A DNA stretch of 45,668 nucleotides, filler included, from Jimgerdemannia flammicorona (Eukaryota): assembly GCA_003990765.1 (NCBI GenBank). It is 2 parts of 2 records of this genome, joined end to end, with 100 filler letters (N's around TTAATTAATTAA, not from the genome) between each part and the next. Parts side by side here need not be neighbours in the genome. Positions count along the whole stretch, not along the records: positions 22,886 to 45,668 come from RBNJ01001205.1; 1 more part is not named here. One strand, 5' to 3'. Every line of letters begins with the position of its first letter. Within the stretch, counting starts at the first letter, position 1. The notes beneath the pieces were generated by a model. It ran no database searches. It saw only the letters and a list, made by a program, of their open reading frames with translations, and was not told the DNA's origin. Below, one piece after another: positions 14,081 to 41,334 of the stretch. The position numbers and the translations under genes were made by a program.

Positions 14081-14089
14081 GAATTTAAA

Positions 14090-15975: not shown

Positions 15976-16147
15976 CTGACGAAAACTCCACCAAAATAGA
16001 CGAGACTTGTTGTATGCTGTAGCTAGACTCCTGCTGCACCTTGTACACCAGAATAGATGATGGGAAAACTTGAGAATGTGTTGCTTGTCGCGAAAAGATG
16101 TCTGTGTGGCTTAGCTTGCTCTGAATGGTTCGAGCAAAAGGAGTCTC

Positions 16148-16215
16148 AAGAAGTAGAAGACTTCTGGCACCCTATCCTTCAGGACAACCCAGACCAATTC
16201 CTGCAAGGATTGATC
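16148..16215 (+). repeat. 68-bp fragment of the Gypsy B LTR ORF at the LINE 5' junction
   Basis: aagaagtagaagacttctggcaccctatccttcaggacaacccagaccaattcctgcaaggattgatc matches 35461-35528 (2 mismatches) and ~28317-28384. Confidence 0.95.
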
Positions 16216-17840: not shown

Positions 17841-20800
17841 GATAAAATGTATTACCCAATTCCTATAGTAACTTTCTTGAATTATTAATAATCTATAGCA
17901 ATGACCAGTATCTTATATATCAAAAGTTTACTTTAGAACTCTGGAACTAGCAGAATATTTAATAAATAAGAAGTTCACTGAAATAAAGCTACTAGCTGAG
18001 TTTGAATCTCTCTCAGTTAGTTAGTCTAGTAATAGACCCTCTGCCCTATATAAGAATAGCCAATCTCTATTAATATATTGATACAATTTTGAGAAATTTT
18101 GGTTAAGTATATCTAGTCTTATATTATTTAAGAACTCAATGAGGATATTAGTTCTTAAGGAGAGAGAGATATAACAATTTCACAGTTATATTTAGTCTTA
18201 GTATATTTTTGCATCTTTTAGTTAGTCTTTTCTTATTATTTCTTGAATATTCTACTATATTCTGCCACTTTCTACTTACTTAGAAATCTTCTCTTAGTAC
18301 TCAGATACTACTAGAATACTCTTGTCTTTCCTTGATACTAAGTATCTTGTCTTAACTAGATATAGAACTTTTTGGATCATTGTAGAATTGTATTAGTCAG
18401 CTTTGCCAAAAATCTATTTCTTGGTATTTCTCTTTCTTTCCAAAATCCTTCTAGACCTTTTTTTCAGATTATATATAAATATCCTTATTCTCTGCCTAAA
18501 TAAAGCTCAGAATATTTTCTCCCAGAAATTCTTTAAGAATACTTGAACCTTTAAGTATCTCTTTAAGCTACTTTAGACCAATTATATAGAACTTTCAGAT
18601 TTAACTGCTTTCTCTTAAAGAAACTAGAACTGTTATATAGATTGAGATATCACTGCTTATAAAGATAACAGATAATATAAATATTCTCAATACTATAACT
18701 ATTAAAAACAAATCAAACCTAAGAACAAAATAAACATTTTACTTGAAAAGATAATAATATTTCTAGTTATATTTATCCTAAAAGTATCAAAGAAAGTAAA
18801 ATAGTTTATCATATATATGATAAAATAAAAATACTTAAAAAAAGAATACTTAAATCTTAAGTTTCTAAGTTAGAAAAAACTATAACTATAAGAGTAGTTT
18901 TAAGAGCAAATACTAAAGACCATATATCACTTTATATCAAATATTATGCTGAAAACTTCAAAGAAATAACCAGATAAGAATAGTTAAATATTTTATCTAT
19001 ACTTCAAAATATCATCAAAAAAGTTGATAAGATATATATATAATCTAATAGGCTATAGAATTAGTATACTAATTGGGCCAATCAGTACTCAAATCTACTC
19101 TATTTTTATATATAAATAGTTTCTAAATATAAAAATAAATATAGAAGTATATATGTAAATTAGCAAAAATATAAAAAGTAAAGTAGTTCCTCCAGAAGTA
19201 ATTAAAGAAGCAAAAAACTGTTTTAAGTAACTAATAATAATAATATTATTATAGAAAAGAGTAAAGTGGCTGTAAGATTATATATATATTAAAATAAAAA
19301 ATATAACTATCTTACTAAAAATTACTTATTTAATAATATCAATACTATTGACTAAGAACTTAAGACCAAATTAGAGAAGTCTGTCAAGAACTTATATAAA
19401 AAATAGAATCTATATTACTAGCTAGTAGTTTTACTATCAAATGTGAACTTAATAAAAAAGCTATAAAAATATTGAGAAAAGAAGCTGAATTACCTTTAAA
19501 TTATAGCCAAACTTATTCTGTATTTGAATTTTTAATATTACTTTTTTCTAGATTTATGTTGAAAAAATAATGAAGACAATTTAGACTTAAAAAAGATAGT
19601 TAATTTCAAGATACATATAATAGAAGATAAAAGAATAGCAAAAAAAATCAGAAATTCTAAAACTTATTATATTATCTAAAAAGGAGATAAAGATTATTTA
19701 AAGTATAAAGTATAAAATATCTATCTCTTTTTACTTGTTTCAGAAAAAGAGATAAAAAGAAAAAATAATATTACTGAAGTATAAATTTAAATTAAGGATT
19801 TAGAAAAAAAAAACCAAATTATACTCCAGCAGAAGAATAAGAATTATAAATCAAAAAAGAAAAATTAGCTAAATTAGAAGCTCAAATAAATAGTAAGAAA
19901 TAAGCTAGTAATAAATTTCCTTAAATCAAATTAGGAGTAGTTTTAATTACTATTATGAGAATAGCTATTTATTTACTAGTTAAAGAATTTATTTATAATA
20001 AAAATAGAAAATAAAAGTTATATTATTTGAGACAAGTAATATCTTTGAATTTGTCTCAGATAAAGGAGTAGATATTATGATAAAGGTACTTCTGATATTT
20101 CAATTCAATAGAATAAGGCTTAAGTACTAGAAATAATAAAGTTTTAATTTTTTCTATAGCTTGAGAAGTTATAGATTTACTAGTCTTCAATAACTTGAAT
20201 TCTTGATAAGAACTACTTATAACTACTTAGACTTTGACTATATCAGAATCAATACTAGTAAAAAGAAAGTATTGAAATTTTTGTAGCCTAAGTAATTTTT
20301 TGAAATAGATTTCTAGATCTCTTATAATGTTATAATATTGGAAATCTTCATTACTATTATAATATCAAGCTTTATTTAATTTAGTAATATTAGATCTTTT
20401 TATTACATCAATAATATAATCTATATAGTCTACTATAGTTTTATATAATAAAGCCTTTGATCAGTCTAAAGCAATTATTACATTTGAATTTAATATAATT
20501 AGGAACCATAAAGTTCAATTTAATACTTTTATAATAATTAGTAATTACTAAGTATAGGTAAAATTAAAGAGTAGTATTATTTTTGTTTTATCTGTCTATA
20601 TTATCTTAAGTAATTTTTAAGTACTTTTCATCTTTATTCAATTGCTTAATTCTATTGAAAACTAGGCTAAGAATATTATTGAGACCCTTTTTAAATAGTT
20701 TATTCTTATTTAGTATATAATTAATTTACTTATATACTGCTTTATTTTAGATATCAACAAGTATACTTTATGAGTACTAATATAATACACTTTGTTAATC

Positions 20801-21409
20801 TGTTGATCTGAGTGAGATATATAGACATTTTGAGCTCAGTTATAACTATAATAAACAACTACATCAATACTATAGTAGGATATCTTACCTTCAATTAGTT
20901 AGTACTCTTAACAAATTAAATTAAATTAAATTTGATTCAATTCATTTAGAAGTACTATAATTAGTAAATAATTTTAATTAATAAGTTTTTATTATTTTTT
21001 TACTAGTTTAGAATTTTTATTATAATAGTTTCACTCTAATCTGACTTTAGATAAGTACTCTTTATATCTCTTTAATAAATCTTAAGTCTTTTTCTCTTTA
21101 TAGGCTTTAAATTATAAGTCATTCTATGAATATTGATAAGTATTGCATAAATTAGTTCAGATACTCATGATTTAGTCAGCTGATATTACAATTTGTGAAG
21201 AATATTATATTTGAGTATGTATAAAATACTATCTTCTTCTAGACTAGTTAAAAAATTATAGTAAACAGATTTATAGCTCATTTCTGTAGATAAAAAAATA
21301 ATTACTTAAGTAACTTGATTAATATTTCTAACCAGACTAGATAATCTATAAACTTTAGTATAATTTAAGAAATTTTTTTTTACTATAATAACTATATCTT
21401 TATCATAAC

Positions 21410-22582
21410 TACCCCTTTCTCTGCTATCTTACTAGCTACAATGGTTTGGTCGGTAACCTTTTGAGTCCACTTTCTACAATTATTACTCTCTCTACCTCAG
21501 GTTGGTTTGCTGTACCTATTGCAGAGTAGTGGGAGAGAGGCAATAGTGATGTGTTGCCCCTTTATTGGTATCAGATTGGTATCTTCTCTACTTTTTCACA
21601 GTTTCTAGTACCTTTAGCTATATCTGGAGTATATTCATTTTGGTGTGGCATCTTCTTCCTTTTGCTATTGCCAATAAGATACTATCTTGATATGTCTTGG
21701 GCTACATAGGGAGTCAGCCAATCTTGGGTATCAAGTGCTTAGTGTAGGCTACCTGTAGGTCCTCAGTATCTGTGGTGGGGCTCTCTGGCTTTGCGAGCTT
21801 CCCAGTGAGTACAATTCTAGTATAGATGACTGCTTTTCAGGTATTGTTAGGATAGGAGGGGAGATAGTCATTACAGATAGAAAGAAGGGTAATAATAGTC
21901 AACTAGTAGGGTGCCAGGCTGTGGGTGGTTGTCAGGGCTGAGACAGGTACTGCTTCAGTGGAGTCTTTTGATTGGTGTGGCATAGTTAGGTAGTAGGTAT
22001 TACTCTCAGCTTCTTTTGGCAATTTGGCAGATTGGGCTCCAGTCGTCAGAGGGAGTCAGGGGGCCCGAGGCTATCTATTTTAGGCATCTTGACTACACTC
22101 AACTAGAACTGAGAGCTGATATAACAATATAATCAAGGTCCATAGGCTTGAGTAGTGGGATATTGGGGGTCTCCTCTTGCCTTATATGTAAGTCCTTTAC
22201 TTACCTCGACTGAGAGAACTAGGCCTTATCTACTATATTGTACTTTAATGAGGGTTTTTCTTTACCTATCATTCTCTTTAAGGTAGTGGGGGCTATTCTA
22301 TTTAGCTTGGGTATTGCCTTATATATATATTGGGTTCTTGGGCATATGCTTTCAGTTGTTGGTATATATGTAGCTGGGTTTTCTCTAGTGGTAGAGAGAG
22401 CATAGTGTACAGAATGAGGTGCAGACCAATGTAGGCTCTACTGCACCTAGTATGATTGAGCTGCTGGACAATAACTAGCCTAGGTTAATAGGGGGGCAGT
22501 GCTTGATGGGTGGTAGGGGAGGGTTTTGGCCTATAGTCTAGATTCTCTTTTAATAAAAATCTGCAGAACATTGAGTCTGTTA

Positions 22583-22590
<8 letters not shown>
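21410..22590 (+). mobile_element. Second copy of the poly(A)-tailed LINE-like 3' fragment
   Basis: Inverted homolog of 1-975, extending ~190 bp further 5' (start approximate). AATAAA near 22552, poly(A) 22582-22591, then (AT)n. Confidence 0.6.
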
Positions 22591-22626
<36 letters not shown>

Positions 22627-22785
22627 TATTCTGTAATATAATGCAGCCAAATTTGACTGCAAAAAAATTTTAAATTTTTAAATTTTTTTTTGACTTAATA
22701 TTTATTATAAAATTATAAAAAAAATTGAAATTTTTTTTTGATAATTTCATTTTTTTTTATTTTCTTTTGATTTTTATAGTTTTTT

Positions 22786-22885
22786 NNNNNNNNNNNNNNN
22801 NNNNNNNNNNNNNNNNNNNNNNNNNNNNNTTAATTAATTAANNNNNNNNNNNNNNNNNNNNNNNNNNNNNNNNNNNNNNNNNNNN
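22786..22885. other. Assembly gap: 44 N + TTAATTAATTAA linker + 44 N
   Basis: Symmetric 100-bp spacer carrying stops in all six frames; scaffolding artefact. Confidence 0.97.
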
Positions 22886-23330
22886 TTCATAGTCATGCCA
22901 GAGGGTCATTCGTTCGGTAGTGTCTTTGAGCTGTTGGGTCATTATATACTGGTAGTTGATGAAGTGTCCAAGGTCCTCAGTGTAGAAGTTCAAGTGTTCG
23001 GAAGTATCTGGGTGCCAGATGGCCTTCTTGATAGCTTCAAAGATCAGGGTCTTTGGGCCAGGCAAAGGGGTAGAGTGGCAGGAGGTCTGGTTGGTTCGGC
23101 GAATGGGAGGCATTGTGTGGTGGGTACTTGGTTCTTTGGTGCCGATCTCTGAGGCAAAGCAGGGTTCCTTAAATAATGTGGTCTTCATTTTGGCTCGAAT
23201 CTTCTTGTCTCCTTTTGGGATGATCACCTAATGGATCAGGCTGTCTATTTGATTGTCACGCCATTATGTCGTCTGATCTTATAGTCACAGGGTACTCTGA
23301 ATTTGGACAGGGTCAATTGTAGATGTCACA
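22886..23330 (-). mobile_element. 5' part of an LTR from a third family, carrying a homolog of the Gypsy B LTR ORF; truncated by the gap
   Basis: Starts TGTGACA at 23330 beside an (AT)n run. ORF from ATG 23113 (MPPIRRTNQ..IFEAIKKAIW..LNFYTEDLGHFINY..TTERMTLWHDYE) aligns by eye with 27842-28080. Confidence 0.8.
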
Positions 23331-23727: not shown

Positions 23728-24151
23728 TAGTGCTCTCAATGAATCGAATCAAATTGAATTTGGCCCAAACTCAATTCGATTTGATCAAATCAAGGGTCCA
23801 ATTCGATTTGATTCAAATTGAATCAAAGGTCCAATTTAATTTGAAGTTTGATTCGAACCTTAATTTTCAAAATGTAATAACTCGACTAAACCTCATCCAA
23901 ATTTAACATATTTTAGCTTGTTAGATTTACTGTATTAATGTAATTCTAACAAGCTAAAGTAAGTTAGATTTAGATGAGTTTACACTGAGTTATTGCATTT
24001 TGAAAATTAGGGTTTGAATCAGACCCTCAATTTGATTTGACTTTTGATTTGATTCAAATTGATTTGAATTGAAAAATCCCCAATTTGATTCGACTTGTTT
24101 AACCCTCAATTTGATTTGATTTGAATTGATTCGACTCATTTGGGAGCACTA
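23728..24151. mobile_element. hAT-type MITE, 424 bp, near-complete foldback
   Basis: TIRs TAGTGCTC..GAGCACTA. Exact 8-bp TSD GTTATAAT (23720-23727, 24152-24159). Subterminal TTCGA/TTTGA pentamers; internal inverted arms centred ~23935. Confidence 0.92.
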
Positions 24152-24188
24152 GTTATAATAGAGACTACTTCTATTATTACTAGAATAC

Positions 24189-25740
24189 TATAATATAATA
24201 GGTGCATAACTAGATAAATGTAGCAGATTTCTATAACTCTTCTTGACTCCTCAGAGTTACAAGTAGTATCTATCTGATCTCATTATCAGACTATCAGAGT
24301 AAGGCTTAAACTCTTTTGATCTGAGGTTTATTTACTCTAGATACTGAGATATTTATACAAGTTTACTAGCTATTAAGTGGCTAAGTTATGACTATATTTC
24401 CTATAAGTTACTTTTTATAAGTATAGATATTCTATATTTGTAAAATCTCTACATTTATAAAGTTTCTATGTTTGTAAAATGACTGTTATTTGTAAGAGTT
24501 TAGATACTGTAATCAAATATCTATTTTCTATTTTTATTTCATACTATATATTATATCTTCCTAAATAGATTATTTTTAATATAAAAATATCTATTCAAAT
24601 TCCTAAATCTCAATGTTTATATGTATATTTGTTCCCCTTATATAAACATATTTGTGATATATTAAAGCAATTATTAGAATTTTTTTTGAGATTCTAAAAA
24701 AAGTCTTTAAATAATTAATTCAGATAATAGTATATATATCATCAAAAGTCAGATAATGGTATCTTCAAAAAGTAATATAGTAGTAAATCATATACTTGTA
24801 TTACAAGATGGCTTCCAGGCTTATCTAATATAGATATCTTCAAAAATTAAGAGAAAGCAAATCATATATTATAGGACAGTAATTGTATATTATGGAATAG
24901 TAAATTATATATTATAGGATCATAAACTGTATATTATAGGATGATAAATTATATAACACAGAATAGCATTTCATATATTATAGGATGGCAAATAATATAT
25001 CATAGGACAGCAAATTGTATATCATGGAATAGCTTCTAGGCTTGTTGAGTATAGGTAATAGATCATATCTTCAAAAGTTGAATAATGATTTATATATTAT
25101 CAAAAATCAGATAATGATGGTTTGTATATTGTCAAAAGTTAGATAATAATGACTTGTATCTTCAAAAGTCAGGTGGTAATAAATCATATATTACAGAATA
25201 GCTTCTAGGCTCATCAAGTATATAATAAGCCATATCTTCAAAAGTTGGGTGGTAGCAAATCATATATTATAGGATAGCTTCCAGGCTCATTGAGTATAGG
25301 TAATAGACTTTGGAATGATAAATCATATGTCACAGGACAGATGGTATCAGTTGTTCATTGTTTAGCTTAAAAGTGAGAGATTTATCTTGACTTAAATTAC
25401 CAGTCAATGGGTATTAAGTTGTAATATAGTAGATATATAATCAGGAAAATGCAGAAGATTTCTATAACTCTTTTTGTCTCCTTAGAGTTATAAGTAGTAT
25501 CTATCTGATCTCATTATTAACTATCAGGGTGAGACTCAAACTCTTTTAATCTAAGGTTTATTCACTCTAGATACTGGGATATTTATATAAGTTTGCTAGC
25601 TATAAGATGGCTAAGTTATGACTATATTTTCTATAAGTCACTTTTTATAGGTATAGATTCTGTACATCTATAAAATCTCTATATTTATAAACTATGATCA
25701 AATGTCTATTTTCTTTTTCTATTTTATACTATATGTAACA
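24189..25740 (-). mobile_element. TRIM-like non-autonomous LTR element; LTRs 25420-25740 and 24189-24555
   Basis: Direct repeats of ~320-370 bp, 4-bp TSD ATAC. PBS/leader ~25340-25419 and PPT 24556-24563 resemble Gypsy B. Interior is non-coding tandem repeats. Confidence 0.85.
24700..25340. repeat. Composite tandem-repeat array inside the TRIM-like element
   Basis: About 8 units of 22 bp (atatatcataggacagcaaatt-like) at ~24863-25033, plus recurring tatcttcaaaagtcagataat and gcttccaggctcat units. Confidence 0.8.
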
Positions 25741-25799
25741 ATACTTATAATTAGTATACATATCTATTTCACCACTTATATTGCTAGGCTGATCATTAC

Positions 25800-27599
25800 T
25801 TATTAATTCTAGTATAATATATATTAAAAAGAGAAGGGGTTTTTTTTTACTATAGCTACTTAGTACTTATGAGACTTATAATCTTTATTGTAAAAGAGAG
25901 ATCAATTTTATAGAAGTTATATATATATATTACATATTTTATATATTACTAATAAATAATATAAAACTGATAGAATAGTATAATTATATATTAATATATT
26001 GAGTTATTATTAAAACATTTTAATAGTACTTAGAGTTCTTAGGTATTACTTATAATTTAGAAAGAAAAGAATTTTTTTTATTAAAATCTATTTAATTATT
26101 TTATTTATATTAGCTAAAGATTCTAAGTATCTGCTTCAGAGTTTTATTAATATATAGAGTAATATATAAATTATAGAAGAATTTTAACTTTATATATAAA
26201 ATATAAAAAAATAACTTTAAAAGTTACTTATAAACTTTATATAATTAAAAACTAAAGTACTTAACATATTATTTGTATAATCTAAATATAAAGTTAAAAA
26301 ATATTTCAGTAGTTTCAAAGACTGTTGTAGTAATTTTTATTAGTATAAAGTAGATTTATTTACTAATATAGTCTACAAATATAATAATAATATTCTAATT
26401 ATTTCTAATTTTAAAGAGTTATATAATAAAGTTTATTATAATATAATTTTTAGTTATAAATTAAATTGAAAGAAGTTATAAAAACTAGCTAATAGTTTAT
26501 TATTACTTTAGAATTTTTAATATATATATTAAAGAAGACTATAAAGATTTTAATATCTTTAAATATTTTACTAGTAATATTTTTGAGAAATAAGATTATA
26601 GATTTTATTAAACTAAAATTTTTCTATATCTGAAATATTATATAAATAATCTTAAGTCTGGGATTATTATTTCTAGATATTACTACTTATTTATAAACTT
26701 TATAAATAAGTTTATCTCAATATATAAATCTCTTAATTATTTTTTTTATAACTTCAGATATTTTGGAGTCTAGATTCTAATAATACTAAAGAAAATTCAG
26801 CAATAGATTATTCTTTTATTAATTATCTTTAATGAGTTAAATAAGATTACTAATAACTTTAATAAAAAGAATAAGTTAGTTTTCTATATCTTAAGAATAT
26901 ATCTATTATTTAGTAAAATATATTTATCTCTATAATAAAAATATAATGATCTTTATTTATTATTCTTAATTATAGATCAGTATTTACTAAATATATTTAA
27001 GAGTATAGTAATTTATATACTATAAAAGATTATTTAAATAAGAAATAATATTATTTTTTGAAGGCTATAACTATAGTAAATAACTTTTTTTTATAAATAA
27101 TATAGTTTATTTTGACTGACTTGAGTTTCTGAGAAAGGTAGACTACTGAATAGTCTTTTTGACTAAATATTATTTTAATAATAATATTAGAAATATTAGT
27201 TATTAAAGTAAAATTTTTTAATAAATTTAATATAATAAGAATTAAGATATTAGTTAAAAGTCTTTTGAGATAGTTCATATATAGTCTTAATACAGATATG
27301 AGTTGATTCATTTTTAATATTTATATTCATTTGAATTAGACTAATAAGTAAAGCTATAATAGCTCAGTATTTATAATAAATTATTAATAATATGTATCTA
27401 ACTATTTTTAAGAATCTTTACTATAATTTAAAAGTTATTGAAATACAGAAATTCTATAGTACTAATACTTTTTTTAAATTCTATATTGATACTATTACTT
27501 AAGATAATATAAACTGGATAATTAATTAGTTTTTAATAAAACTTATTTTTATATAGTTAGTATTTTATAATATAATTGATATACTTTTAAAATAGATAT
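25800..27599 (-). pseudogene. pol: Extremely AT-rich Gypsy pol relic D (RT end, RNase H, probable integrase); left boundary approximate
   Basis: FTLITNISNIIIKIIFSQKDYSVVYLSQKLKSVKINYIIYKKKLFTIVIAFKK is a hypermutated Gypsy RNase H (TDAS..GAVLSQ..PVAYLSRKL..EKELLAIV). Confidence 0.75.
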
Positions 27600-27714
27600 T
27601 ATAATGATGACCCCAGAATGATGACATCAGCACAGGAGACAGCCTTTCCTTATAAGCCACCAGATCAGAGCATAAGAAGATTATATGGCATACAAGATGA
27701 GCAATGATGACCAA

Positions 27715-27761
27715 CTATGAGTCATTGTGACCACAGTATGAGTATCTTGAAGAATATAAAA
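27715..27761 (+). promoter_or_regulatory. Putative promoter of the LTR ORF: ATGAGTCAT (AP-1/Gcn4-like) and TATAAAA
   Basis: ATGAGTCAT 27717-27725, TATAAAA 27755-27761, about 80 bp upstream of ACAAAATG; core motifs retained in the 3' LTR. Confidence 0.5.
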
Positions 27762-27841
27762 GAAGGATCAAGGAACTGTAGTAGCAGCAACCAACAAGAA
27801 CCACCAATCCCAAAATAGCTCAAAGACTTACCACAAACAAA

Positions 27842-28645
27842 ATGCCTACTACCCGCCAAACCTTAAGGTCTAGAAATCACCAAGGTATCTTAGTTGAGAA
27901 AAGGATGTTCCAAGACATCAGAAGAGCCATGAGGACCTGCTCAAGAAGGACTCCTAGTGTCAACCTGGGTACTGCAGACCCTTATCACTTTATCCTCTAC
28001 TACTGCGAAATAGAAACAAGGATCACCATTACTACCAAATACCTCCAAATGTGGCAGGAGTACAAAATAGAAAACCTCCTCTGCCGGGAGTTCCAACAGG
28101 CCAGCACCCAAGAGCTACAAGATGCCACTCCCATGGATATACATGAAACAAGGACAGCTAAGAAGATCCATCAGATCTTCAGACATGCACCATGGTCGAT
28201 CCTCAACTTGGAGTATGTTAGAGTCTCAGATTTCAGAGACCTATCATCCTGCTGTATCAATATACTAGAAGCCAGGATGGCTACAGAAGCTCAGTCCACT
28301 ATCACCCTCAATAGTGAAGAAGTAGAAGACTTCTGGCACCCTATCCTTCAGGACAACTCAGATCAATTCCTGTAAGAATTGATCTCAGTATTCCAAGGCC
28401 CAAGCATCTGGGTTAGATCTCCCCAAGACCCCACATTTGTTCCTTATTTTGTAGAAGAGAACCTCATAGACTGGAGAGCTCCAGACCTTGTCTCTGATTT
28501 CCCCACCACAGCCGAACATGATGACATCATTGATGATGTCATCCTGCATGACATCGAAGTACGCAAAAATGACGAATTTGCAGATCTCATCTCCTTCAGT
28601 GATGATGATGATGAAGCCCCCATAATCCTGAACTTTCTGCTCTAA
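27842..28645 (+). pseudogene. LTR-encoded 267-aa ORF of unknown function (5' copy, one premature TAA)
   Basis: ORF-track segments 27842-28375 and 28379-28645 are in frame; the stop is CAA in the 3' LTR copy. Confidence 0.85.
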
Positions 28646-28815
28646 GTTCTTTATTTACTGGATAATGCCAGCACCAGCATTCTGAGGTGACGCGAAATTA
28701 TTCCAGCACTGGTATTTTGATGTGACACTAAATAATACCAGCCCTAGAACTTAGTAGTTTTAGTTATTGGAATTTATATTTAGCTTTATATCTTAGCAAT
28801 CATTGAATTATATTT

Positions 28816-28850
28816 TATATAAATACCCCTCTTATTTTCTCTGAAATAAA
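28816..28850 (+). promoter_or_regulatory. Second TATA box and AATAAA signal at the presumed U3/R region
   Basis: TATATAAATA 28816-28825 and AATAAA 28845-28850; equivalent motifs near 35998-36030. Confidence 0.55.
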
Positions 28851-29059
28851 GTTGGTTCCTCTTAGTGCAACATACACACTTCCTTGCAAGCAATCTAAGA
28901 GATAACAAGATAGTTAAAGATAAGAAGTTTGAGGACTATAAGACCTTGGGAAGGCACTCCAACAAGAACTTGCTTATAACAACTTGAGTTAGTCAAAGAG
29001 ATATATCTTGAAGAGAATCTGGCATATTTGAAGGACTCAGCGACCACTATTTGACAACT

Positions 29060-29077
29060 TGGTGCCCATTGGCTGGT
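29060..29077 (+). promoter_or_regulatory. Primer-binding site of Gypsy B
   Basis: TGGTGCCCATTGGCTGGT, 3 nt after the LTR end; starts with TGG, complementary to tRNA CCA. Primer identity not established. Confidence 0.7.
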
Positions 29078-29137
29078 GATTCAAGATGAATCCCTCACTT
29101 TCAAGCTGAAAAATGAACAACCCCCACAACAACTACC

Positions 29138-32100
29138 TTGACTACAAGAGTCACCTCTGCAAGAATTCAAGACAAGATGGAAATACGCCCCCCCACATTC
29201 TATGGATATACTACTGAAGAGTTAATCCTGACCTTCATTGAAGACTTTGAACAATTTACTGCCATACAAGCTCTTGGTGTGGATGCTCAATTGGCCCTTC
29301 TACCAGTCAGCCTCAGAGGACCTACCAGAGACAAGTTCAATGCAGCCACCATTGCTGATGCTGATGCAGCCAAACTTGCCAATATGAAGATCTTCCTCAG
29401 AACAACATATTATACCAAAGAGATCAAGTAAGCTCTCAAGGATCAACTCAATTCTATCTGCCAGGGACTTAGTGAAGATCCCAACTCATTCTATATCCAA
29501 ATCTGCCACCAGATTGTCTTGGCTGGCTATGATGATGCCCTCAAGAAACAAATAGCAGATTCAACCTTCCTCAAAGGAGTTCACCCTGAAATTGCTCTAG
29601 CAATTCAGTCTACCCTAGCTGCACTGACCCTTGATCAGAAAGTGGTCTTTACACAGAGATATTGGACTGCTAGACACCCTGCCAAACACTCAATGGAGAA
29701 AATAACTGGCATAAAGATGGAGCCATCAAAGCCGACTAGTATCTTATCTGCCACAGTTGTAAACAGACAACCAACCCCACCTATCTCCAAGATAGCCAAA
29801 GCTGACCCAGTGGAAGAACTTGCCAAGCAGTTTGCCAAGATGACTGCACACCTTGGTGATGTTGTTAGAGAAGTCTGAAGTGCCAACAGGAGACCAGTGC
29901 AGAGATTTACAGCTGCTACAGAAGAATGCAATATCATATGCTTCAGATGAGGAGAAGAAGGCCACTATGCAAAGAGTTGCATGACCGAAACAAGATGCAA
30001 AGCCCAACCAAGCAATGCTAGCAGAACCAGAGAACAAACTAATGCAGTAGTCATCGAGGAGATTGGTGACACTGATGATGAGGAATACTATGAGGAGCTC
30101 GAATTCTACCCTGCTACCGAAGGTACCAGAACCCGGTCCAAGCCATATGACAAGAAGAGCAACAGCAAGCCAGTTGGAAGACCAAAAAAGACTCCAGCTG
30201 TCACTATTCAAAGTAAGACCCAACACAAGGAGATTGATCAAGACATAGAGTTAGACGAGGCTGCCTGCCAAATTATCGAAGGCACTACTCCAGTCTCAGG
30301 AGAAAGCAAAAGCAAGAAGGAACAGAAGCTGTGCAAGACCAAGATCCACTAGTATGACATCTACAAGGACCTCAAGGAACAGAAGGTCAATGCCACTTTT
30401 GGGTAGCTAGCTAAAGTCTCTGCCTTCAGACAGCAGTTGAGAGTAGGACTTGCAACTACTATCAAGAATGAAGAGTACAAGATTGTAGAAGCTCACAATG
30501 TACAAGAAGAATCTGAGAACTCAGGTGAAGAATCTGAAGACCAGTGCAAGACATCAGCCTATACCCCCTGCCAGATCAAAGACTTTATCTTTGATGCCAT
30601 CATTGATACTAGTGCTGGAGGATGCCTCATGAGCAAGAAGGCAATTGACCACCTAGGTTGGGACATTGAAGAGTCCACCAAGATGGTCTATATCACAGCA
30701 GATGGTATACAAGCTACCCCCCTTGACAAAATCCAAGAAGTACCCATTAAGATAGAAGGAGCTACCATCCCAGTAGACATGATTGTTACAAGCACCACCA
30801 ACTATGACATCCTCATTGGCAACCAATGGCTTCACAAGGCCAAGGCCATCATTGACCTCAATGTCCAGAAGATGCAGATCAACTACAAAGGAAGAAAGGT
30901 ACAAGTTTCTATCAATGTCCACAAAGGAGTCCTGTCAGACATAGAGGAAGGAGATGAAGAAGACACAGAGGTCTTCATGCACTCAGTGAACAAGAATAAG
31001 AACAAGACACCCAAGCTTACAGATGAGCAGTGGTATAACAAGATCATTGATGGGTATGCCCCTCAAGGAAGATGCCCCCATGGTACTAGAATGTACTGCT
31101 CCAAACACCTGAATGACTGCTGGTCCTGTATCAGTGAAGTCAGGAAAATCCATCAACAGAAATATGAGCAAGAAGCTGCTGAAGTAAAAAGGAAAGCTGA
31201 AGAAGATGACCAGCCCCCAGAGCTTCAAGCTGACAGTGATGATGAGAAGGAATAAGAATCAGACATCACCCTTAAGGTCAAGAAGTTTCACCCTGAAGTT
31301 AAGATCCCAGAATACAAGACTGAAGGAGCCATAGGAATGGACCTTGCTAGCATCCAAGATGCTACCCTTGAACCACAGACCACAACCCTACTTGGCACTG
31401 GAATTGGAGTCAAGTTGCCAGAAAACCATACCGGAATTATCAAGACCAGGAGCAGTCTGGCCAAAAGTGAAATCTCAGTTGAAGGAGGAGTAATTGACCC
31501 TGATTATACTGGTGAGATTTTTCTCATAGTCAGAAATCACAACCACACCACCCCCTTCAAAGTCAAGAAGCATGACAGGATTGGCCAGATGCTGATCCAC
31601 GAAATCAAGAAGCCCAAGATCATAGAGGCCACTGAACTTATCAAGACCAAGAGAGGAGAACAAGGCTTTGGATCTACTGGAAGAGGAGCCTATGCTGCCA
31701 CCAAGATTACTGAACTTGAGCACAAGAAAGATAAGGACCAGGACAAGCACATATATACCATTGGAGAAAACTTTCCCCTGGAGGAACAACTTCTCAAGAT
31801 CCTGTACCAGAACAAAGGAGTACTTGCTACAGACTTTAGGGATATCCACAATCAAGAACCCAAATACCACCATGAAGTTGACACTGGTGATACCAAGCCT
31901 ATCTATCAGAAAGCCAGACCCATACCACCTGCCTACAGAGAGTGGCTGTGAGCTAAACTCAAGGAAATGGAAGAAGCTGGAATCATCAAGCAAGCTATCA
32001 GCCCCTGGGTCTCACCAATTGTCCTTGCCCCAAAGAAAGGAAGCAAGTCTGGAGAGTTTGCACCAAGACTCTGCATTGACTACAGGAAACTCAATGCCAT

Positions 32101-33157
32101 CACCAAGAAGGATAGGCAGCCCTTGCTGAATATTCAAGAAATCCTTACCACTCTTGGAAGCAAAGCCAAATACTACACCACCTTGGATCTGTTCTCAGGC
32201 TTCCATCAAATCAGTCTCAATCAAGATGCCAGTGAGAAATCAGCCTTAATCACACCTGATGCCACCTATATCTATCTGCGAATGCCATTTGGAATGTACA
32301 ATGCCCCAGCAAGTTTCCAGCGAATGATGAACAGAGTCTTCAGCAATGAGATTGGAAAATGGTATTGATGATGTGATCATCTTCAGCAACACTACATGGG
32401 AACATGTCAATCACATACAGCTAGCCCTCAAGAGGCTCAAGGAGTATGGCCTCTACATCAAGCCCAAGAAATGCAAGTTTGCAGCTCAAGAAAACGCCTA
32501 CCTAGGACACCTCATCAACCAGACTGGAATCCACATAGACCCCATGAAGATCGAGGCTGTTGCAGCCTACCCAAGACCCAGAACAACCATGAAGTCCATG
32601 CCTTCCTTGGACTGGCCAGCTACTACAGAAGATTCATCAAAGGATACTCCAACATTGCAGTACCTATCTATGAGCTACTGAAGAAGGAGACCAAATTCGA
32701 ATGGACCAAGGAGTGCCAAGAAATCTTCAATGAACTCAAGACCAGGTTGACCCAAGTACCTATCCTCAGAAGACCAGACTGGAACCTAGAATTCACCCTG
32801 CAGACAGATGTGAGTGCTATAGGACTTGGAGTGGTTCTAGCTCAGAAGAAAGATGGACATAAATATGTCATCTCCTACACAAGCCAAGATACCCATGGAG
32901 CAGAACAGAACTATGAGTCATGCAAGCTTGAATGCTTAGCAGTAGTTTGGACAGTAGACAAGTTCCACTACTACCTAGCCGGAAAACACTTCACCATTTA
33001 AACAGACCATTCTGCTCTTGCCTGGCTATTCCACACTCTGAACCCCAAAGGAATATATGCCAGATAGATCTACAGGCTACAAGAATATGACTATACTGTC
33101 AAGCATCACCCAGGAAAGACCAATACCAATGCCAATGCACTCTTAAGGAAACCCTGA
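29138..33157 (+). pseudogene. pol: Gypsy B gag-pol: gag, Zn knuckle, protease, Cys module, dUTPase, RT, RNase H
   Basis: Six ORF-track segments from 29138 to 32368 share one frame. CFR*GEEGHYAKSC; IIDTSAG; SPWVSPIVL, LCIDYRKLN, LDLFSGFHQI, MPFG, IDDVII; FLGLASYYRRFI, QTDVS. Confidence 0.95.
31270..31685 (+). pseudogene. dut: dUTPase domain of Gypsy B, between protease and RT
   Basis: All five motifs: GMDL, RSSLA, GVIDPDYTGEI, RIGQ, RGEQGFGSTG. Confidence 0.95.
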
Positions 33158-33182
33158 AACATCACCATCAAGACTATTCAAC

Positions 33183-34395
33183 ATGAATAAGAAGCTATAC
33201 TATGGATTAATCAGCTACCTTGGGCAGTGGAAGATGCTCAACCACCTCGAACTCTGGACAATCACCATCATCAACCAGACTTGGAAACAGTTTGAATTAG
33301 ACAACACTACACTCAGAAAAGGAGGAAAGCTAGTAATACCTGAATATAAGAAGTATCAAGTAATGAAGGAAGTACACAAGCAAGGACACTTAGGAGGAAC
33401 CAACACATACGACAAGGCAAGAAGAATCATATGGTGGCCCAAAATGGAAGAAGACCTGCGCCAATTTGTCAAAGGGTGTGACAAGTGCCAAAAACAGAAA
33501 CAATATCAGCAAGACCAGATACCTGGATCATCAAGAATTGAGCCTATCCCCTTCCACCATATCACAATGGATATCATTGGACTACTACCAGTAACACTAT
33601 CAGGAAACTGCTATATTATAGTTATTATAGACCTCTTCACCAAATGGATAGAGGCAGGAGCATTACAAGAAGCCAATGCCCTCTCTATAGCTGATTTCCT
33701 ACACCGAGAAATCATCTGCCACTATAAGACACCAAAGCAAATCACAAGAGACTGCAGCACAGAATTTGTCAATGGATTCCACAAGATAATGTACCAAAAA
33801 TACAAGATCCAGCACATCAAGACCACTGCATACCACCCTCAAGAAAATGGACAGACAGAGAGAACCAACAAGACCCTCAAGAACATCCTAGCAAAGATCT
33901 CAGAGACATATGAGAATTAGGATAACTATCTCCCAACTGCCCTCTCTGTTCTATGAGACATACAGTCACAGAGCACACATTTTACCCCAAGAGAGCTGCT
34001 CTTCGGAGAAGAAGATTCTAATGGAACCTCAGCCACAAATCTAGACCTAACTTGGAGATGGGTTAATGCAGAAATCCAGAGACTACACCAAATCAGGAAG
34101 AAGGCTGAAGATTACATCACCAAGTTACAAACACTGACAAGGAAGAATGCGGAAAAGAATCACAAGGCCCTAGAACCCATCCAAATTGGAGAAAAGGTTC
34201 TACTATATCGAAATATAGTAGAAGCCTCATGGTCATGAAAACTGGAGCCCAAATGGGAAGGACCCTTCTACATGCAAGATATCAAGGGAACTACCTTCTG
34301 GCTTAGAAAAATCTCAGAGACCATACTGCCTACTATGGTACATAGAAACAGACTCAAGAAGTACCACGAACCTATACAAGAGAAGCAAAATGTGA
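33183..34395 (+). pseudogene. Gypsy B integrase (HHCC, DDE core, GPY/F; no chromodomain)
   Basis: H..GH..CDKC, MDIIG, IDLFTKW, TAYHPQENGQTERTN, KLEPKWEGPFY. Confidence 0.93.
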
Positions 34396-34743
34396 TGACC
34401 GCTCATGAGGTTCTAGTCCACAAATCATAACAGCATGTCCCATGACCAGCAGGCTATCTGTCTAGACCATTCTCTAAGGGATATGGCACTGGCAACTACT
34501 CATCCATGAGACTTTTGAAGTCAGAAGAGTTTGAACTGTCAACTGATTGGTCAAGATCAGAATCAGGCCCTTGCTCTATATGAAGGGAGTGACCCTTCAC
34601 CATCATGCCAAAATACAAAGGGAAGACACTAGTCTATAAACACCAGTTTTCAACCCCTTGCCAGAGGTTATGAGATCAGTAAATTTTTCAGGACTGGACC
34701 AATGAATAAGGATGCTCAGGAAGATCTTTATTCAGGAGGAAGA

Positions 34744-36236
34744 TGTAACAGTGACCCCAGAATGATGAAATCAGTACAGAAGACAGCCTTTCCTTATAAG
34801 CCACCAGATCAGAGCATAAGAAGATCATATGGCATATGAGATGAGCAATGATGACCAACTGTGAGTCATTGTGACCACAGCATGAGCATCCTGAAGAATA
34901 TAAAAGAAGGATCAAGGAACTGCAGTAGCAGCAACCATCAAGAACCACTAATCCCAAAATAGCTCAAAGACTTACCACAAACAAAATGCCTGCTGCCTGC
35001 CAAACCTCAAGGTCAAGGAATCACCAAGTTATCTTAGTTGAGGAAAGGATGTTCCAAGACATCAGAAGAGCCATAAGGACCCACTCAAGAAGGATTTCTA
35101 GTATCAACCTGGGTACTGCAGACCCTTATCACTTTATTCTCTACTGCTGCAAATTGGAAACAAGGATCACCATTGCTACCGAATACCTCCAAATGTGGCA
35201 GGAGTATGAAATAGGAAACCTCCTCTGCCGGGAGTTCCCACAGGCCATCACCTAAGAGCTACAAGATGCTACTCCCATGGATATACGCAAAACAAGGACA
35301 GCTAAGAAGATCCATCAGATCTTCAGGCATGTACCATGGTTGATCCCCAACTTGGAGTATGTTAGAGTCTCAGATTTCAGAGACCTATCATCCTGCTGTA
35401 TCAATACACTAGAAGCCAGGGTGGCTACAGAAGCCCAGTTCACTATCACCCTCAACAGCAAAGAAGTAGAAGACTTCTGGCACCCTATCCTTCAGGACAA
35501 CCCAGATCAATTCCTGCAAGAATTGATCTCAGTATTCCAAGGTCCAAGCATCCAGGTTAGATCTCCCCAAGACCCCACATTTGTTCCTTATTTTGTAGAA
35601 GAGAACCTCATAGACTAGAGAGCTCCAGACCTTGTCCCCGATTTCCCCACCACAGCCGAATGTGATGATGTCATCGATGACATCATCCAACATAACATTG
35701 AAGTATACGAAAATGATGAATTCGTAGATCTTATCTGCTTCAGTGATGATAATGATGAAGCCCCCATAATCCTGAACTTTCTGCTCTAAGTTCTTTATTA
35801 TACTGAATAATGCCAGCACCATTATTCTCATGTAATACTGGATAATGCCAGCACTGGTATTCTGAGATGATACGAAATTATTCCAGCACTGGTATTTTAA
35901 TGTGACACTAAATAATGCCAGCCCTGGAACTTAGTAGTTTTAGTTATTGGAATTTATATTTAGCTTTATATCTTAGCAACCATTGAATTATATTTTGTAT
36001 AAATACTCCTCTTATTTCCTCTGAAATAAAGTCAGTTCCTCTCAGTGCAATACACATACTTCCTTGCAAGCAATCTAAGAGATAACAAGACAGTTAAAGA
36101 TAAGAAGTTTGAGAACTATAAGACCTTGGGAAGGCACTCCAATATGAACTTGCTTATAACAACTTAAGTTAGTCTAAGAGATACACCTTGAAGAGAATCT
36201 GGCATATTTGAAGGACTCAGCGACCACTATATGACA
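34744..36236 (+). repeat. 3' LTR of Gypsy B (1493 bp), preceded by PPT AGGAGGAAGA
   Basis: TGTAACA start directly after the purine tract; ends ATGACA, then TSD ATAT. Confidence 0.95.
34986..35789 (+). pseudogene. LTR-encoded 267-aa ORF (3' copy, two premature stops)
   Basis: Same 804-bp length as the 5' copy; stops TAA 35253 and TAG 35616 are CAA and TGG in the 5' copy. Confidence 0.85.
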
Positions 36237-37516: not shown

Positions 37517-37584
<68 letters not shown>

Positions 37585-37627
37585 GTCACTTAGACTTTCT
37601 TTCTTCTCTTTATTAAAATACAATCTA

Positions 37628-40600
37628 TCATTTAAAAAATACACAATGCCCAACCCTATCCAATCCCCCAGGGGGGCCCCTGCCTCCCACCCCCACTTGA
37701 TGAAAGACCACTTTGTCTAATACTATCTCCATCTGCCCACCACTTTGTCCACATATTCTCTCTACCAGGTGATGATGTTTGTCACTCTGGAGACCCCAAC
37801 TCACCCACCACCCAGTCAGCAGATCCCCCATCAACCCCTCCCACCTTAATAACTTCTCCTGTAAATCCATCTACTGTCTCTCCTCAAAGACAAAGAGCTA
37901 ATATCCAGCTAGCCCTATCTATACTGCTAAGACCCACCCTACAGTGAGCCAACCATTGTCCATACCACCCACTAGCTGAGATTTCAAGTTCTCTCAGCGA
38001 TCTTGCTCTCCATCTGGCCTCCTCTCCACACTCAGTCAATTCCCTACTACTATCCAAAAGTCCCCCAGAATCTCACACTCTCCCAGCCAATGTTCAGGCA
38101 TTTGCACAAATCTCCCAACTTGCCCTACATTATAACACTCCTCACAATCTAAATGGCCACCCTCCACAAGATGTCCAGCATGGAAATTCAACATGACATT
38201 CCTCCTCAGTATCTGCCACCATACCACCCAGAACTTAGGAGGAAGCCACCACCACACCTCAGCACTCCATGACCAGACTCCTGCCCAGTCCCACTCCTCA
38301 CCAATCCCCACAGCCTGCCAACTACCTAGCCAAAGATCCTGACCAAGGCACTGCTGACACACCACTCCATCACCAATATCAAACTCAGCAAGTGGAATAT
38401 CTCCCAGAAGAAGTCTGTCCCATTGCCACATAGCTAGACCCCCCAGTACCTCTCTCTCATTGCCTCACCAGTACAGTCTAATCTGGTGTGCTCCATCTAC
38501 CACCCCCCACCAGAAGCTCTTATATCATAGCCATTGGCTTCCAGTCAGGCTCACCAGAGAGAGTAAATCTCCAGAGGACCCCTGAGGAGAAAACCTCATC
38601 TTCCACACCTTCTACATCAGTGGCACCCACCCTCCTCTCTGCAGTTCAACAGCCCTTTTCAATTACCAAGCTCACAGATAGTGCAGCCACTTAGGGAAAT
38701 CCACAAGACCTAGTCCTCCCCTAACCACTAGTGTTACAAGAGTATCCCAACTGATCTGAGACCTCCTCCCTACCCAAATCCAATCTCTAGCCAATTTTGT
38801 CAGTCTCTTCACCACCCAAGCCAGGAAGTCTAAGTGATAGGCCACATACCATAGCTTGGAGAACCAGTAAACATTCAGAATCAACACTCGCCCTGCCAGG
38901 GAGATGTGGTGACCCCCCAACCCCTAAGAGCCTCCCCCCAAATGGCCACTCTCCTCTCTCACCATACTTATGGCAAGACAGATCCATATACAGAAATGAT
39001 AATACTCAAATACCACACCACCTCTCCTGTGGGGACAATTGTTCCAATGATGTCTCCTCCCATCAGCCCATTCCCTAACACCATTGTCTCACACTTATGT
39101 CAGTTGAGTTTCGCCCCAGAGTGTGCCTCATACCATTCCACTGTCTCCTTGAGTACCTCAACATCCTCCACTGATCCAAGTCCAACCACTATATCATCTG
39201 TGAAAGCCCCCACCTTCCACACTACACCATATACAGAGAGCCCTACCATCCTCTGACGTATTCTATCCACCAAAGGTTCCAAAGAAAGGGCATAAAGGAT
39301 AGGAGACAGTGGGTCTCTCTGAGGAACTCCTCTTTCCAAGGGAAATGCCAGACCCTGGTGACCATTACACAACAGTGCTACTTTACTGCCCTCCAACAAA
39401 TTCAGCATAGAAGCCCAAAACCTTGGAGGAACACCAATTCTATCCAGCACCTTGCCTAGTCATACCTGCCAAACATGGTCATAGGCCTTCTCCTGGTTCA
39501 AAAAGACCAGTCTACCATCCAGTCCACAAGCTCGAGCCCCCTCAATGATGCTATACACTCAGGTAGTCCCATCCCTAATAAGTCTGCCTCCTACAAAGCC
39601 ACACTGCTCCTCACCCAGAACCTGTTGGGCAACTCTCTGTAGCCTCACAACAATCACCTTAGTCACCATCTTCCTGTTCATGTCTAGAAGTATGATTGGC
39701 CTTCAGTTCTTCCAGTCCTCCCTTCTTCCCTTATTCTTGTACAATAAGGCCACCAGCCCCAAGTCCTGCTCGCTAACCCACTTGCCATTCAGAAGAACAT
39801 AGTCACAGAATGCAGCCATCTCTCCTAATACTCCAGGAACCTTTGCTATCTTCTTCCAGAAGTCCCAAGGTAACCCATCCTCTCCTGGCACTGTTCCTAG
39901 TTTAGTTGCTGCAAGGACTCTCTGGATCTCCTCCCGTTGGACTGGTAAGATCAAATCACCCAGACCATCTACTTGTAGTTGCTCCCACTCCTCCAGTATA
40001 TCTCCAATTGCCTGCTCATCAGCACCCTCTTCCTCCTCACTCTACAGATCCCTCCAATTTTCCTTCAGTTCTGCTGTGTACCATGCACCATATCTCCCTT
40101 GGCATCCAAGACTCCATCCCATTGGTGGCACACCCTCCTTGCTTGGAGGAGTCTTGACAGGTACCTAGTGGGCCACTCCCATTCTCCAAGCCCCTGCCAC
40201 TGCAGCCTGGCTGCCAAACCTTTCATAAGAACCTCCTCCTCTTCTTGCAATATTTGTTGCAGCTTCAATACCTCCAACTTCACCTTCTCCAACCTCCAAT
40301 CCTCCACCCCTTCCAAATGAAGCAACTCGGCCCACTCCACCTACAATCTAATCAACCTATTAGAAGGACACTGTACTCACTTCCTTCTCAGCCTTCCAGT
40401 CTCCCTACCAGCTTCTCCCCAATAAACCCTCACAGCCTCCTTCAACCTCATCCACCGGACATCCACAGCTGATCTCTCTTGTATCCAGATGGTGATCTTC
40501 ACTTGGACATCCTTCACCCATGGGTCCCACAACCCCTTCTCAGCCAGCAGTGAGGAGTTAAGGCACCAATGTCCAGGTCCATCTCCACTCCCCCCAAACT

Positions 40601-41303
40601 GTCCCTGCCCCAATAGGCCCCAGTGATCAGACCAAGGACACCACTCCACCTCCAGAGTCCTCTAAACATCAGCACCCCAATATTCAGCTGTCAGAATCCA
40701 GTCAATCCTTGTATCCAGTCCATTTATCCAATATGTATAGACCCTCCTATCACCCCACTGTGTTCTGTCCATATCTCCTAAGGAGCTAAGAGTCTCCACC
40801 TCCTCCCACTTATCCAGCCCACCACTCCACCCACCTGCACTCCTTCCTCTATCAGTTCTATCCAGCTGTGGATCTCTCACCATATTAAAGTCACCTCCCA
40901 GAACATTGATGCCTTCCTCCAAGAAGACAACCTCCTCCAACAGATCTCTAATCCACTCAATCTGCTCACCCCTAACCACAGAGCAGTAGCAGGAGCCAAC
41001 TCTAACCAATTCCCACCCAGGTCAGTGCCATTCTCCCCAGACCAAATAGTCCCCCCAGCTCTGAATTCCACCCAAGTCCCCTCTACCCTTTCTCACCAGA
41101 ATTGCCACTTTGCCATTCCAAGCAGTAGCCTCTCCCCATTCTCTAGTCCACTCCACTTGATCTACCTCACCCTCACACTATACATCCTAGAGTAAAAAGA
41201 TATCAGCCTCCAATCTCTTAAGCCAAGTAAAAATGTTCCTATGTCACCCTGATCTCCATAGCCCATTCACATTTGGAGAGAAAATACTAGTTGTACTGTT
41301 CAT
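37628..41303 (-). pseudogene. LINE ORF2 (APE-RT-Zn finger), many stops
   Basis: PNVNGL, LGGDFNMV, TRIDWIL, WSDH, PGEDGLP, GVPQRDPLSPILY, AFTDD, CEEC..EHWLGEC. Confidence 0.93.
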
Positions 41304-41334
41304 AAGGAATAATTTTGTTTATCAATTGTGCCCT

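Follow-up and report, generated by a model that had tools for sequence, protein, structure and literature searches.

A gene-length reading frame within the long terminal repeats of a Ty3/Gypsy retrotransposon from Jimgerdemannia flammicorona and its conserved protein family

Long terminal repeats (LTRs) usually count as control DNA without coding function. A stretch of 45,668 nucleotides from the Jimgerdemannia flammicorona assembly GCA_003990765.1 (hereafter the window, i.e., the whole stretch that was analysed, numbered from its first letter) raises the question of whether an LTR may also house a gene, because both LTRs of a Ty3/Gypsy retrotransposon in it hold the same open reading frame (ORF). 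If this frame is a gene, from which promoter would it be expressed, and what might its product do for the element? Our analyses indicated that the 267-codon frame is a genuine, conserved, LTR-resident gene, and these LTRs probably encode a helper protein besides their control signals.

The ORF measures 804 bp (267 codons and a TAA stop), begins 234 nt into the LTR and ends 411 nt short of the LTR end (Table 1). As it lies wholly inside the LTR, each insertion carries the ORF twice. A preliminary description of this DNA had reported the same frame without indels in both LTRs, premature stops at different codons in the two copies, and a layout of TATA box, A-rich leader, ORF with acidic tail, 35-bp repeats, second TATA box and AATAAA; all of these features were recovered at the positions given in Table 1. 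At each of the three stop positions, the opposite LTR copy reads a sense codon. The sole indel between the two LTRs is a 36-column gap right after the ORF, which represents one extra 35-bp repeat unit.

Both ORF copies in the window are broken, and thus these two LTRs cannot produce the full protein. The copies differ at 70 sites (27, 21 and 22 at the three codon positions), 63 of them transitions, with an NG86 omega of 0.58; given the transition bias, this value reflects neutral decay since insertion. Over the whole LTRs, with the G/C state taken as ancestral, the 99 transitions fall into CpA (62), CpC (20), CpG (15) and CpT (2) contexts, although CpT is the commonest C-dinucleotide of the LTR (226 of 595). 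All three ORF stops (two CAA-to-TAA, one TGG-to-TAG) are transitions of the CpA/TpG type. CpA-biased transitions together with CpG depletion are the pattern of repeat-induced point mutation (RIP) in fungi, and, judged by this mutational signature, RIP-like C-to-T and G-to-A changes put the two window copies out of action; the signature also points to a fungal host. Window-wide, the CpG observed/expected ratio is 0.00-0.28, and some blocks contain only 14-25% G+C, notably 18001-21000 and 24001-27000. An alternative genetic code with TAA and TAG read as Q was considered and rejected: pol also has in-frame TGA stops, and the relatives of the ORF were called as open frames; this rejection assumes that the gene callers applied all three stops to the intact relatives.

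The damage does not extend to the family at large. Four sequencing runs (X1, X2, X3 and X5), comprising three soil metagenomes and one organism, yielded thousands of short contigs that match the LTR. At 28373, where the 5' copy has its stop, a sense codon accounts for a depth of 1072.6 out of 1122.9 in X1, 111.1 out of 134.9 in X2, 182.8 out of 182.8 in X3 and 54.5 out of 58.3 in X5. The ORF breaks in the window are therefore private, local damage. Among the 12 contig indels listed, of 14 in total, three lie within the ORF (+3, +6 and +12), and the nine outside it are of 1-2 nt. In X1, the depth of contigs of at least 80% likeness is 8-236 over 28469-28582, whereas most of the ORF reaches about 1000-1800 and some other ORF bins are also lower (283-864); this low depth marks the tail as the most variable part of the family, in agreement with the protein alignment.

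Intact relatives of the ORF were readily found as proteins. A word-indexed search gave five relatives at E <= 0.01 among 203 candidates, an exhaustive phmmer search of 1.84 billion representative proteins gave five at E <= 0.001 (138-342 aa in length), and a profile search gave 12 at E <= 0.01 among 8000 scored. All of these protein relatives come from small clusters and from short metagenome contigs of 567-4848 bp. The family falls into three subfamilies that are 27-88% identical to the window ORF: subfamily B, the window type (P0003-P0008, P0012 and P0020; 62-88%), subfamily C (P0010, P0014, P0011 and the ORF of the locus L001; 37-42%) and subfamily A (P0013, P0018, P0019 and P0021; 27-33%). 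Every subfamily has intact members (P0004 of 271 aa, the L001 ORF of 291 aa, P0018 of 325 aa and P0011 of 342 aa), and these have in common an MPxxR..QT start, the core motifs W.EYEI, HQ.FRH.P and F.GP.I, and an acidic tail; subfamilies B and C also have DLI.F (DLISF-type) and P..LNF motifs close to the C-terminus. Intact relatives down to 27-42% identity, together with the prevailing sense codon at 28373, indicate that the frame is no product of chance.

The sole relative obtained as DNA was L001, a 1535-bp soil-metagenome locus that emerged from the second metagenome scan; none of the 594 pattern matches from the first metagenome scan was a relative, and the viral_contigs and genome_contigs scans gave none. 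Between L001 and the two window ORF copies, the proportions of nonsynonymous (pN) and synonymous (pS) differences are 0.43 and 0.71-0.74, with an omega of 0.22-0.28, and between L001 and a 76-codon subfamily-A start in the window (see below) omega is 0.16. With silent divergence (dS) saturated, these omegas show just that replacement sites have changed far less than silent sites. The dN/dS check put forward in the preliminary description could be made against this one distant copy, within that limit, and was uninformative between the two LTRs, which have decayed neutrally. We infer that frames of 271-342 codons that stay open across lineages only 27-42% identical cannot be neutral, and the LTR ORF is very probably a gene under selection. 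That the frame is not a functional gene, but either stays open for the sake of LTR cis-elements at the nucleic-acid level or is what remains of a host fragment once captured, is very improbable. The lack of a known domain, a low-confidence structure model and the breakage of both window copies would suit such an explanation; however, long frames are open in all three subfamilies, both the start codon and tail motifs are conserved, and pN is far below pS. As to a host fragment, no relative longer than 342 aa, as a possible host gene might be, occurs among the five phmmer matches from the 1.84 billion representatives.

If the frame is a gene, the next question is which promoter serves it. L001 carries TGACCCCTGAAG 233 nt ahead of its ATG, whereas the window LTR starts with TGACCCCAGAAT 234 nt ahead of the ORF; 10 of these 12 bases are equal, and the LTR terminus TGACCCC is common to both. 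The box TATAAAAGAA is identical at 10 of 10 positions in the window and L001, lying 87 nt and 80 nt upstream of the ATG, respectively, and in L001 it is the only TATA-box match of the whole contig. The last 20 nt ahead of the ATG are identical throughout (20/20). In the window LTR, the 57 nt preceding the ATG consist of 29 A, 19 C, 5 T and 4 G. Upstream ATGs are lacking from all three copies compared, and A occupies position -3. A further lineage is represented by the subfamily-A start on the minus strand of the window, within an LTR-like start that begins with TGTGACATC and is cut by an artificial linker (Table 1): its ATG at 23113 stands about 215 nt into the LTR-like start and opens 76 codons (hmmsearch E 4.4e-16), of which 64 match P0018 by a hand count. 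The conservation of the upstream TATA box and leader at about 40% protein identity suggests that the ORF is served by a promoter of its own, a proposition that we regard as evenly poised or tilting just perceptibly towards acceptance.

The ORF stop is followed by the 35-bp repeats, a second TATA box (75-150 nt on), AATAAA (27-29 nt after that box) and about 200 nt to the LTR end; in the 3' LTR only TATAAAT, at 35998, remains of the second box. The copy number of the repeats varies between the two LTRs (2.3 versus 3.7), and one X2 contig has a 36-nt insert. The dyad core CCAGCACTGG occurs nine times in the window with up to one mismatch, versus 2.15 expected, a count that none of 100 shuffles reached, and four of the nine lie within the LTR repeats. 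The promoter regions around the two TATA boxes are not alike (score 14, compared to a shuffle mean of 16). A scan for bacterial-type promoters and terminators was discarded as irrelevant to a eukaryotic element.

These observations bear on two other ways of expressing a real gene. In the first, which we consider unlikely, the ORF would have no promoter of its own and, as a U3 gene, would be expressed only through its 3' LTR copy, from genomic or spliced RNA starting from the second TATA box in the 5' LTR. Mouse mammary tumour virus (MMTV) sag and human immunodeficiency virus nef are U3 genes expressed in this way, through genomic or spliced subgenomic RNA, and such retroviral U3-resident genes are the only precedent found in the open literature searched. 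The ORF stands upstream of the repeats, TATA box and AATAAA, and so falls into U3 if the second TATA box drives the genomic RNA, which would then bear the ORF near its 3' end. Against this stand the conservation of TATAAAAGAA, of the 80-87 nt spacing and of the ATG-free leader at about 40% protein identity, where silent sites are saturated, and the failure of inspection by eye to find a convincing pair of splice donor and acceptor.

In the second, the upstream TATA box would be the single promoter, the ORF would lie in an R region of about 1.1 kb, transcripts ended at AATAAA would be the ORF mRNA, read-through transcripts would be the genomic RNA, and the second TATA box would be incidental. 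With the first TATA box 147 nt from the LTR start, U3 would have a normal length; this box is also the conserved one, and L001 has no second TATA box in the 284 nt after its ORF. However, 25 ATGs would then precede the gag start, as opposed to two from the second TATA box, and most genomic transcripts would terminate prematurely at a poly(A) signal lying 1.06 kb from the cap. In addition, the succession of tandem repeats that vary in number, a TATA box and then AATAAA is the usual enhancer-promoter-R-U5 layout of an LTR. A single upstream promoter is thus distinctly improbable, more so than the lack of any separate promoter for the ORF.

With regard to the product, no described family was matched. 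Pfam gave nothing for P0001 and P0002 at E <= 0.1, nothing for three further members at E <= 1, and, for 14 members at E <= 5, nothing beyond a chance ATG5_HBR row in three of them. The PDB sequence search had no match at E <= 1, Foldseek none at E <= 0.001 for both models, VIA-align none at Z >= 5 (best Z 4.5 and 3.6), and the ESM Atlas a best feature score of 0.83 and a best TM of 0.33, under its own bars. The preliminary description had allowed that the frame might turn out to be an already described accessory ORF or a captured host exon, and these Pfam, PDB and fold searches disclosed no described family, nor did the phmmer search show a longer, host-like relative. Kinship with the element's own gag was rejected (hhalign probability 0.06%).

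The better of two AlphaFold models, built from 19 sequences (mean pLDDT 60.7, pTM 0.55), has a helical core at residues 70-160 (pLDDT 80-93) and a small hairpin, and becomes disordered (pLDDT < 50) in the tail, from about residue 217-220 onward. In four members, the isoelectric point is 4.5-4.9, residues 1-45 have a net charge of +1 to +8 and the tail one of -14 to -26. Their Kyte-Doolittle means over 19 residues peak at 0.64-1.07, which indicates no membrane segment. The tail of the window ORF comprises 52 residues with 16 D/E versus 2 K/R, and the run (TGA)5 at 28600-28614 encodes its Asp run. From the model and composition, the product is probably acidic and soluble, its N-terminus being basic, its core helical and its tail strongly acidic, probably disordered and furnished with conserved short hydrophobic motifs. 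A homodimer prediction scored 0.00, which is no evidence either way.

In its acidic, disordered tail with hydrophobic motifs, the product resembles the acidic transcriptional activators, a functional class that does not imply homology; rows of ParB/SopB/KorB/VirB-type helix-turn-helix proteins appeared for residues 71-157 at Z 2.4-3.1, which is weak and below the meaningful level. We tentatively propose that the product is a transcriptional regulator, an activator of the element's own LTR, while regarding this as doubtful. A real LTR gene whose product is no transcription factor, for example a helper in RNA export or packaging (with which the basic N-terminus and a hydrophobic C-terminal motif would agree), an antagonist of silencing or a self-limiting copy-number factor, is possible to the same modest degree. 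A basic N-terminus combined with an acidic tail bearing short hydrophobic motifs fits several kinds of adaptor protein, and the part of PMC10309623 available to us describes a Ty3/Gypsy accessory protein with a role in RNA export, CERV of Cer1. Nothing specific speaks against these roles; Pfam found no RNA-binding or silencing-suppressor domain.

Taken together, we lean slightly towards the reading that the ORF is an LTR-resident accessory gene of a dUTPase-bearing Ty3/Gypsy clade, with its own promoter, two transcription units per LTR and a nuclear regulator as its product. The LTR would then consist of two modules. The first would comprise the integration terminus, the TATA box, the ATG-free A/C-rich leader (about 57 nt) and the ORF; the second, a classical U3-R-U5 end, would comprise the dyad-bearing, enhancer-like 35-bp repeats, the second TATA box, AATAAA and U5. 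A monocistronic ORF mRNA of about 1.05-1.1 kb would run from the first TATA box to the shared poly(A) signal and could be made by any LTR. The gag-pol RNA would start behind the second TATA box, at or just past AATAAA, so that the genomic RNA would meet this signal in active form at its 3' end alone. The protein would act as a nuclear regulator on its own LTR, e.g., as an activator through the dyad repeats. The more particular scheme of a two-promoter cassette in which this protein without a fold match binds the 35-bp dyad repeats and switches the genomic promoter, closing a feedback loop, is unlikely.

Several points weigh against this reading. Both transcription start sites are predictions from the sequence, and the TATA boxes sit in fairly AT-rich DNA and may be incidental. 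In the 284 nt from the L001 stop to the contig end there is neither a second TATA box nor an AATAAA. A single element offers both LTRs; for L001 and the minus-strand start, LTR residence is deduced from terminus and spacing. The omega values against L001 are rough, upper-range figures from one distant DNA copy with saturated dS, and protein databases contain open frames only, a bias towards intact copies. The in-frame ORF indels of the contigs all lie in a microsatellite, (TGA)n, whose slippage goes in steps of three with or without selection, two of the 14 indels are outside those listed, and one X3 contig skips 83 nt in the tail region (28485-28569). The function is read from composition and weak leads, with the best fold matches (Z 4.5 and 3.6) below the meaningful level. 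Of the accessory-gene interpretation offered in the preliminary description, the real LTR-resident gene is supported and its own promoter plausible; expression from solo LTRs and an anti-silencing or copy-number role are hypothetical, and the two copies in the window are both broken.

Two further observations concern L001. Its DNA after the ORF is not alike to that of the window (score 24, a value that shuffled sequences exceeded, their maximum being 30). A 28-bp direct repeat (L001:170-197 and L001:1481-1508; 24/28 identical, score 36 compared to a shuffle maximum of 26) brackets its ORF, about 100 nt before the TATA box and 230 nt after the stop, and two promoters may have it in common as a control element.

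The carrier is a decayed Ty3/Gypsy retrotransposon with a dUTPase between protease (PR) and reverse transcriptase (RT). Its LTRs are direct repeats of 1449 and 1485 bp, 90.1% identical over 1485 columns, and the loose ends of run X2 turn into sequence resembling a polypurine tract (PPT) precisely at 27608, the left LTR end. The pentamers flanking the element, read by eye, are unequal (AATGA versus ATATA), possibly owing to later mutation. Along 30407-33920, the Pfam matches follow the order PR, RT, RNase H and integrase, which is the pol order of Ty3/Gypsy; the dUTPase (PF00692, E 3.7e-29) lies at 31256-31951, between the PR and RT matches. The gag region, with its ATG at 29177, has a weak CCHC match under the Pfam cut-off. 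From gag through RNase H the coding sequence runs in a single frame (29117-33001), interrupted by five listed in-frame stops within 30407-33001 and five further stops in the gag read-through at 29177-30406, and the integrase lies in another frame after a shift; the stops and the shift indicate that the element is dead. A search with the integrase gave 35 relatives at E <= 1e-10, mostly metagenome records, the nearest organism-labelled ones being plant proteins of 31-34% identity; full-length pol proteins fell outside the length range that this search covered. No tRNA and no Rfam match was found anywhere in the window.

Table 1. Positions in the window of the LTR-borne ORF, the parts of its carrier element and related fragments
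Feature	Position	Strand	Remarks
5' LTR	27608..29056	+	starts TGACCCC, terminates GACA
Upstream TATAAAA box	27755..27761	+	87 nt 5' of the ORF ATG; 3' LTR counterpart at 34899
Leader	27762..27841	+	ATG-free; final 57 nt A/C-rich; final 20 nt same as in L001
LTR-borne ORF, 5' copy	27842..28645	+	267 codons; in-frame TAA at 28373-28375 (codon 178)
35-bp tandem repeats, 5' LTR	28662..28742	+	2.3 copies; perfect CCAGCACTGG dyad core in one unit (28703-28712)
Second TATA box TATATAAAT	28816..28824	+	TATATAA/TATAAAT at 28816/28818; candidate genomic-RNA promoter
AATAAA	28845..28850	+	single in the LTR; 3' LTR counterpart at 36025
Putative primer-binding site	29060..29077	+	TGG start, 3 nt past the 5' LTR; read by eye, no tRNA matched
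Internal region	29117..34751	+	gag, protease, dUTPase, RT, RNase H, integrase
PPT-like purine-rich run	34734..34743	+	shortly before the 3' LTR; similar loose-end consensus in X2 and X3
3' LTR	34752..36236	+	1485 bp, direct orientation with the 5' LTR
LTR-borne ORF, 3' copy	34986..35789	+	in-frame stops at codon 90 (TAA) and codon 211 (TAG)
35-bp tandem repeats, 3' LTR	35800..35927	+	3.7 copies; dyad core exact at 35848 and 35883, with one mismatch at 35918
Second-lineage LTR start	22885..23330	-	starts TGTGACATC near 23330; cut by the linker at 22885
Isolated ORF-core fragment	16144..16215	+	68-72 bp, 94% identical to LTR positions 710-777

Beyond the two LTR copies, the family profile found only the minus-strand start and the ORF-core fragment at 16144-16215 in the window. 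The fragment, which derives from the best-conserved core of the ORF and may be a recombination junction or a chimera, stands at the edge of a GC-rich block (context 15850-17151) and is followed immediately by ITDHQSLKY, RNase H-like by eye, and further downstream by an integrase-like match at 16684-17151.

The rest of the window contains other decayed material. A second Gypsy element at about 4016-5734, on the minus strand, is more decayed and retains a dUTPase and pieces of PR and RT; its dUTPase is 36.9% identical over 160 residues to that at 31256-31951, and neither an LTR pair nor a member of the ORF family was found with it. Two AT-rich units of about 270 bp, 86% identical and in direct orientation (24191-24461 and 25422-25691), lie in decayed DNA between the two LTR-bearing regions. 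The GC-rich blocks at 10500-16000 and 37600-43200 (50-56% G+C, very strong C-over-G skew of -0.4 to -0.5) are rich in open frames that overlap one another on either strand; 12 of these frames were tested, without a Pfam match. A repeat family links 1-975 with the reverse of 21601-22586 (79%), 976-2565 with the reverse of 37550-39153 (68%) and 38036-38509 with the reverse of 45195-45668 (81%), and includes a frame at 880-1455 without a Pfam match. The linker at 22785-22884 consists of two 44-N runs around TTAATTAATTAA, which has stops in all six frames; it joins two pieces artificially, and features across it are not contiguous.

The nearest analogue of the LTR-resident gene is MMTV sag, which likewise is a frame of several hundred codons inside the LTR, and hence at both ends of the provirus. 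In the openly accessible literature that was searched, LTR ORFs amount almost solely to this gene. The MMTV product, Sag, is a type II membrane glycoprotein, whereas the protein described here has no membrane anchor and no sequence similarity to it (no Pfam match). The carriers also differ: here it is a Ty3/Gypsy retrotransposon without env, and a conserved TATA box and leader directly precede the ORF.

Extra genes are known from other LTR retrotransposons, at other positions. The additional ORFs (aORFs) of plant elements reportedly occupy either the interval from the 5' LTR to gag or that from pol to the 3' LTR, and the window ORF, being inside the LTR, falls outside both positions. The ORF3 of bdelloid elements is said to follow pol, outside the LTR. 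Like the window ORF, plant aORFs are additional genes, either regulatory or without a known function, in Ty3/Gypsy and Ty1/Copia elements, and in the portion of the 2020 mini-review on them that was available (PMC7264820) the phrases 'in', 'within' or 'inside the LTR' do not occur. According to the accessible part of PMC5408684, the bdelloid elements Juno, Vesta and TelKA have a dUTPase between PR and RT and varied ORF3 genes as an extra beside ORF1 (gag) and ORF2 (pol). The accessible text of PMC2864245 places a dUTPase between PR and RT in a Postia placenta family and mentions dUTPases also in Phanerochaete and Tuber elements. As far as these partial sources go, our carrier resembles the bdelloid and fungal dUTPase-bearing Gypsy elements in its PR-dUTPase-RT order and in the tendency to gain extra ORFs.

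Among other fungal elements, the visible part of PMC10787394 shows only gag and pol ORFs for crapaud of Podospora, and in a paper on Talaromyces 'LTR ORF' denotes pol frames. The brtn gene of Boty/BcGypsy1 in Botrytis cinerea is an additional gene of a fungal Ty3/Gypsy element (10.1101/2021.04.13.439636, available in part); to go by the title of Zhao et al. 2011, brtn is antisense, whereas the window ORF is in sense orientation and inside the LTR. Cassandra LTRs carry 5S rDNA-like units (10.1101/2023.07.14.548913, likewise available in part), and the LTR described here is similar in that it houses a further, independent unit resembling a gene, with a promoter of its own that is predicted in our case. 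From the same partial source, however, the Cassandra unit has a Pol III RNA-gene promoter and belongs to a non-autonomous plant element, as opposed to a Pol II cassette that codes for a protein.

Our analyses add a protein family without detectable relatives, of which natural intact copies exist for testing. If the proposed reading is true, LTR annotation pipelines overlook coding capacity, and accessory regulation in the style of complex retroviruses arose in a simple Ty3/Gypsy lineage. Solo LTRs could then stay genetically active once the element itself is lost. Under the more particular and unlikely scheme of a switch through the dyad repeats, full elements and solo LTRs together would feed a family-wide pool of regulator, a Tas/Tax-like loop residing in the terminal repeats.

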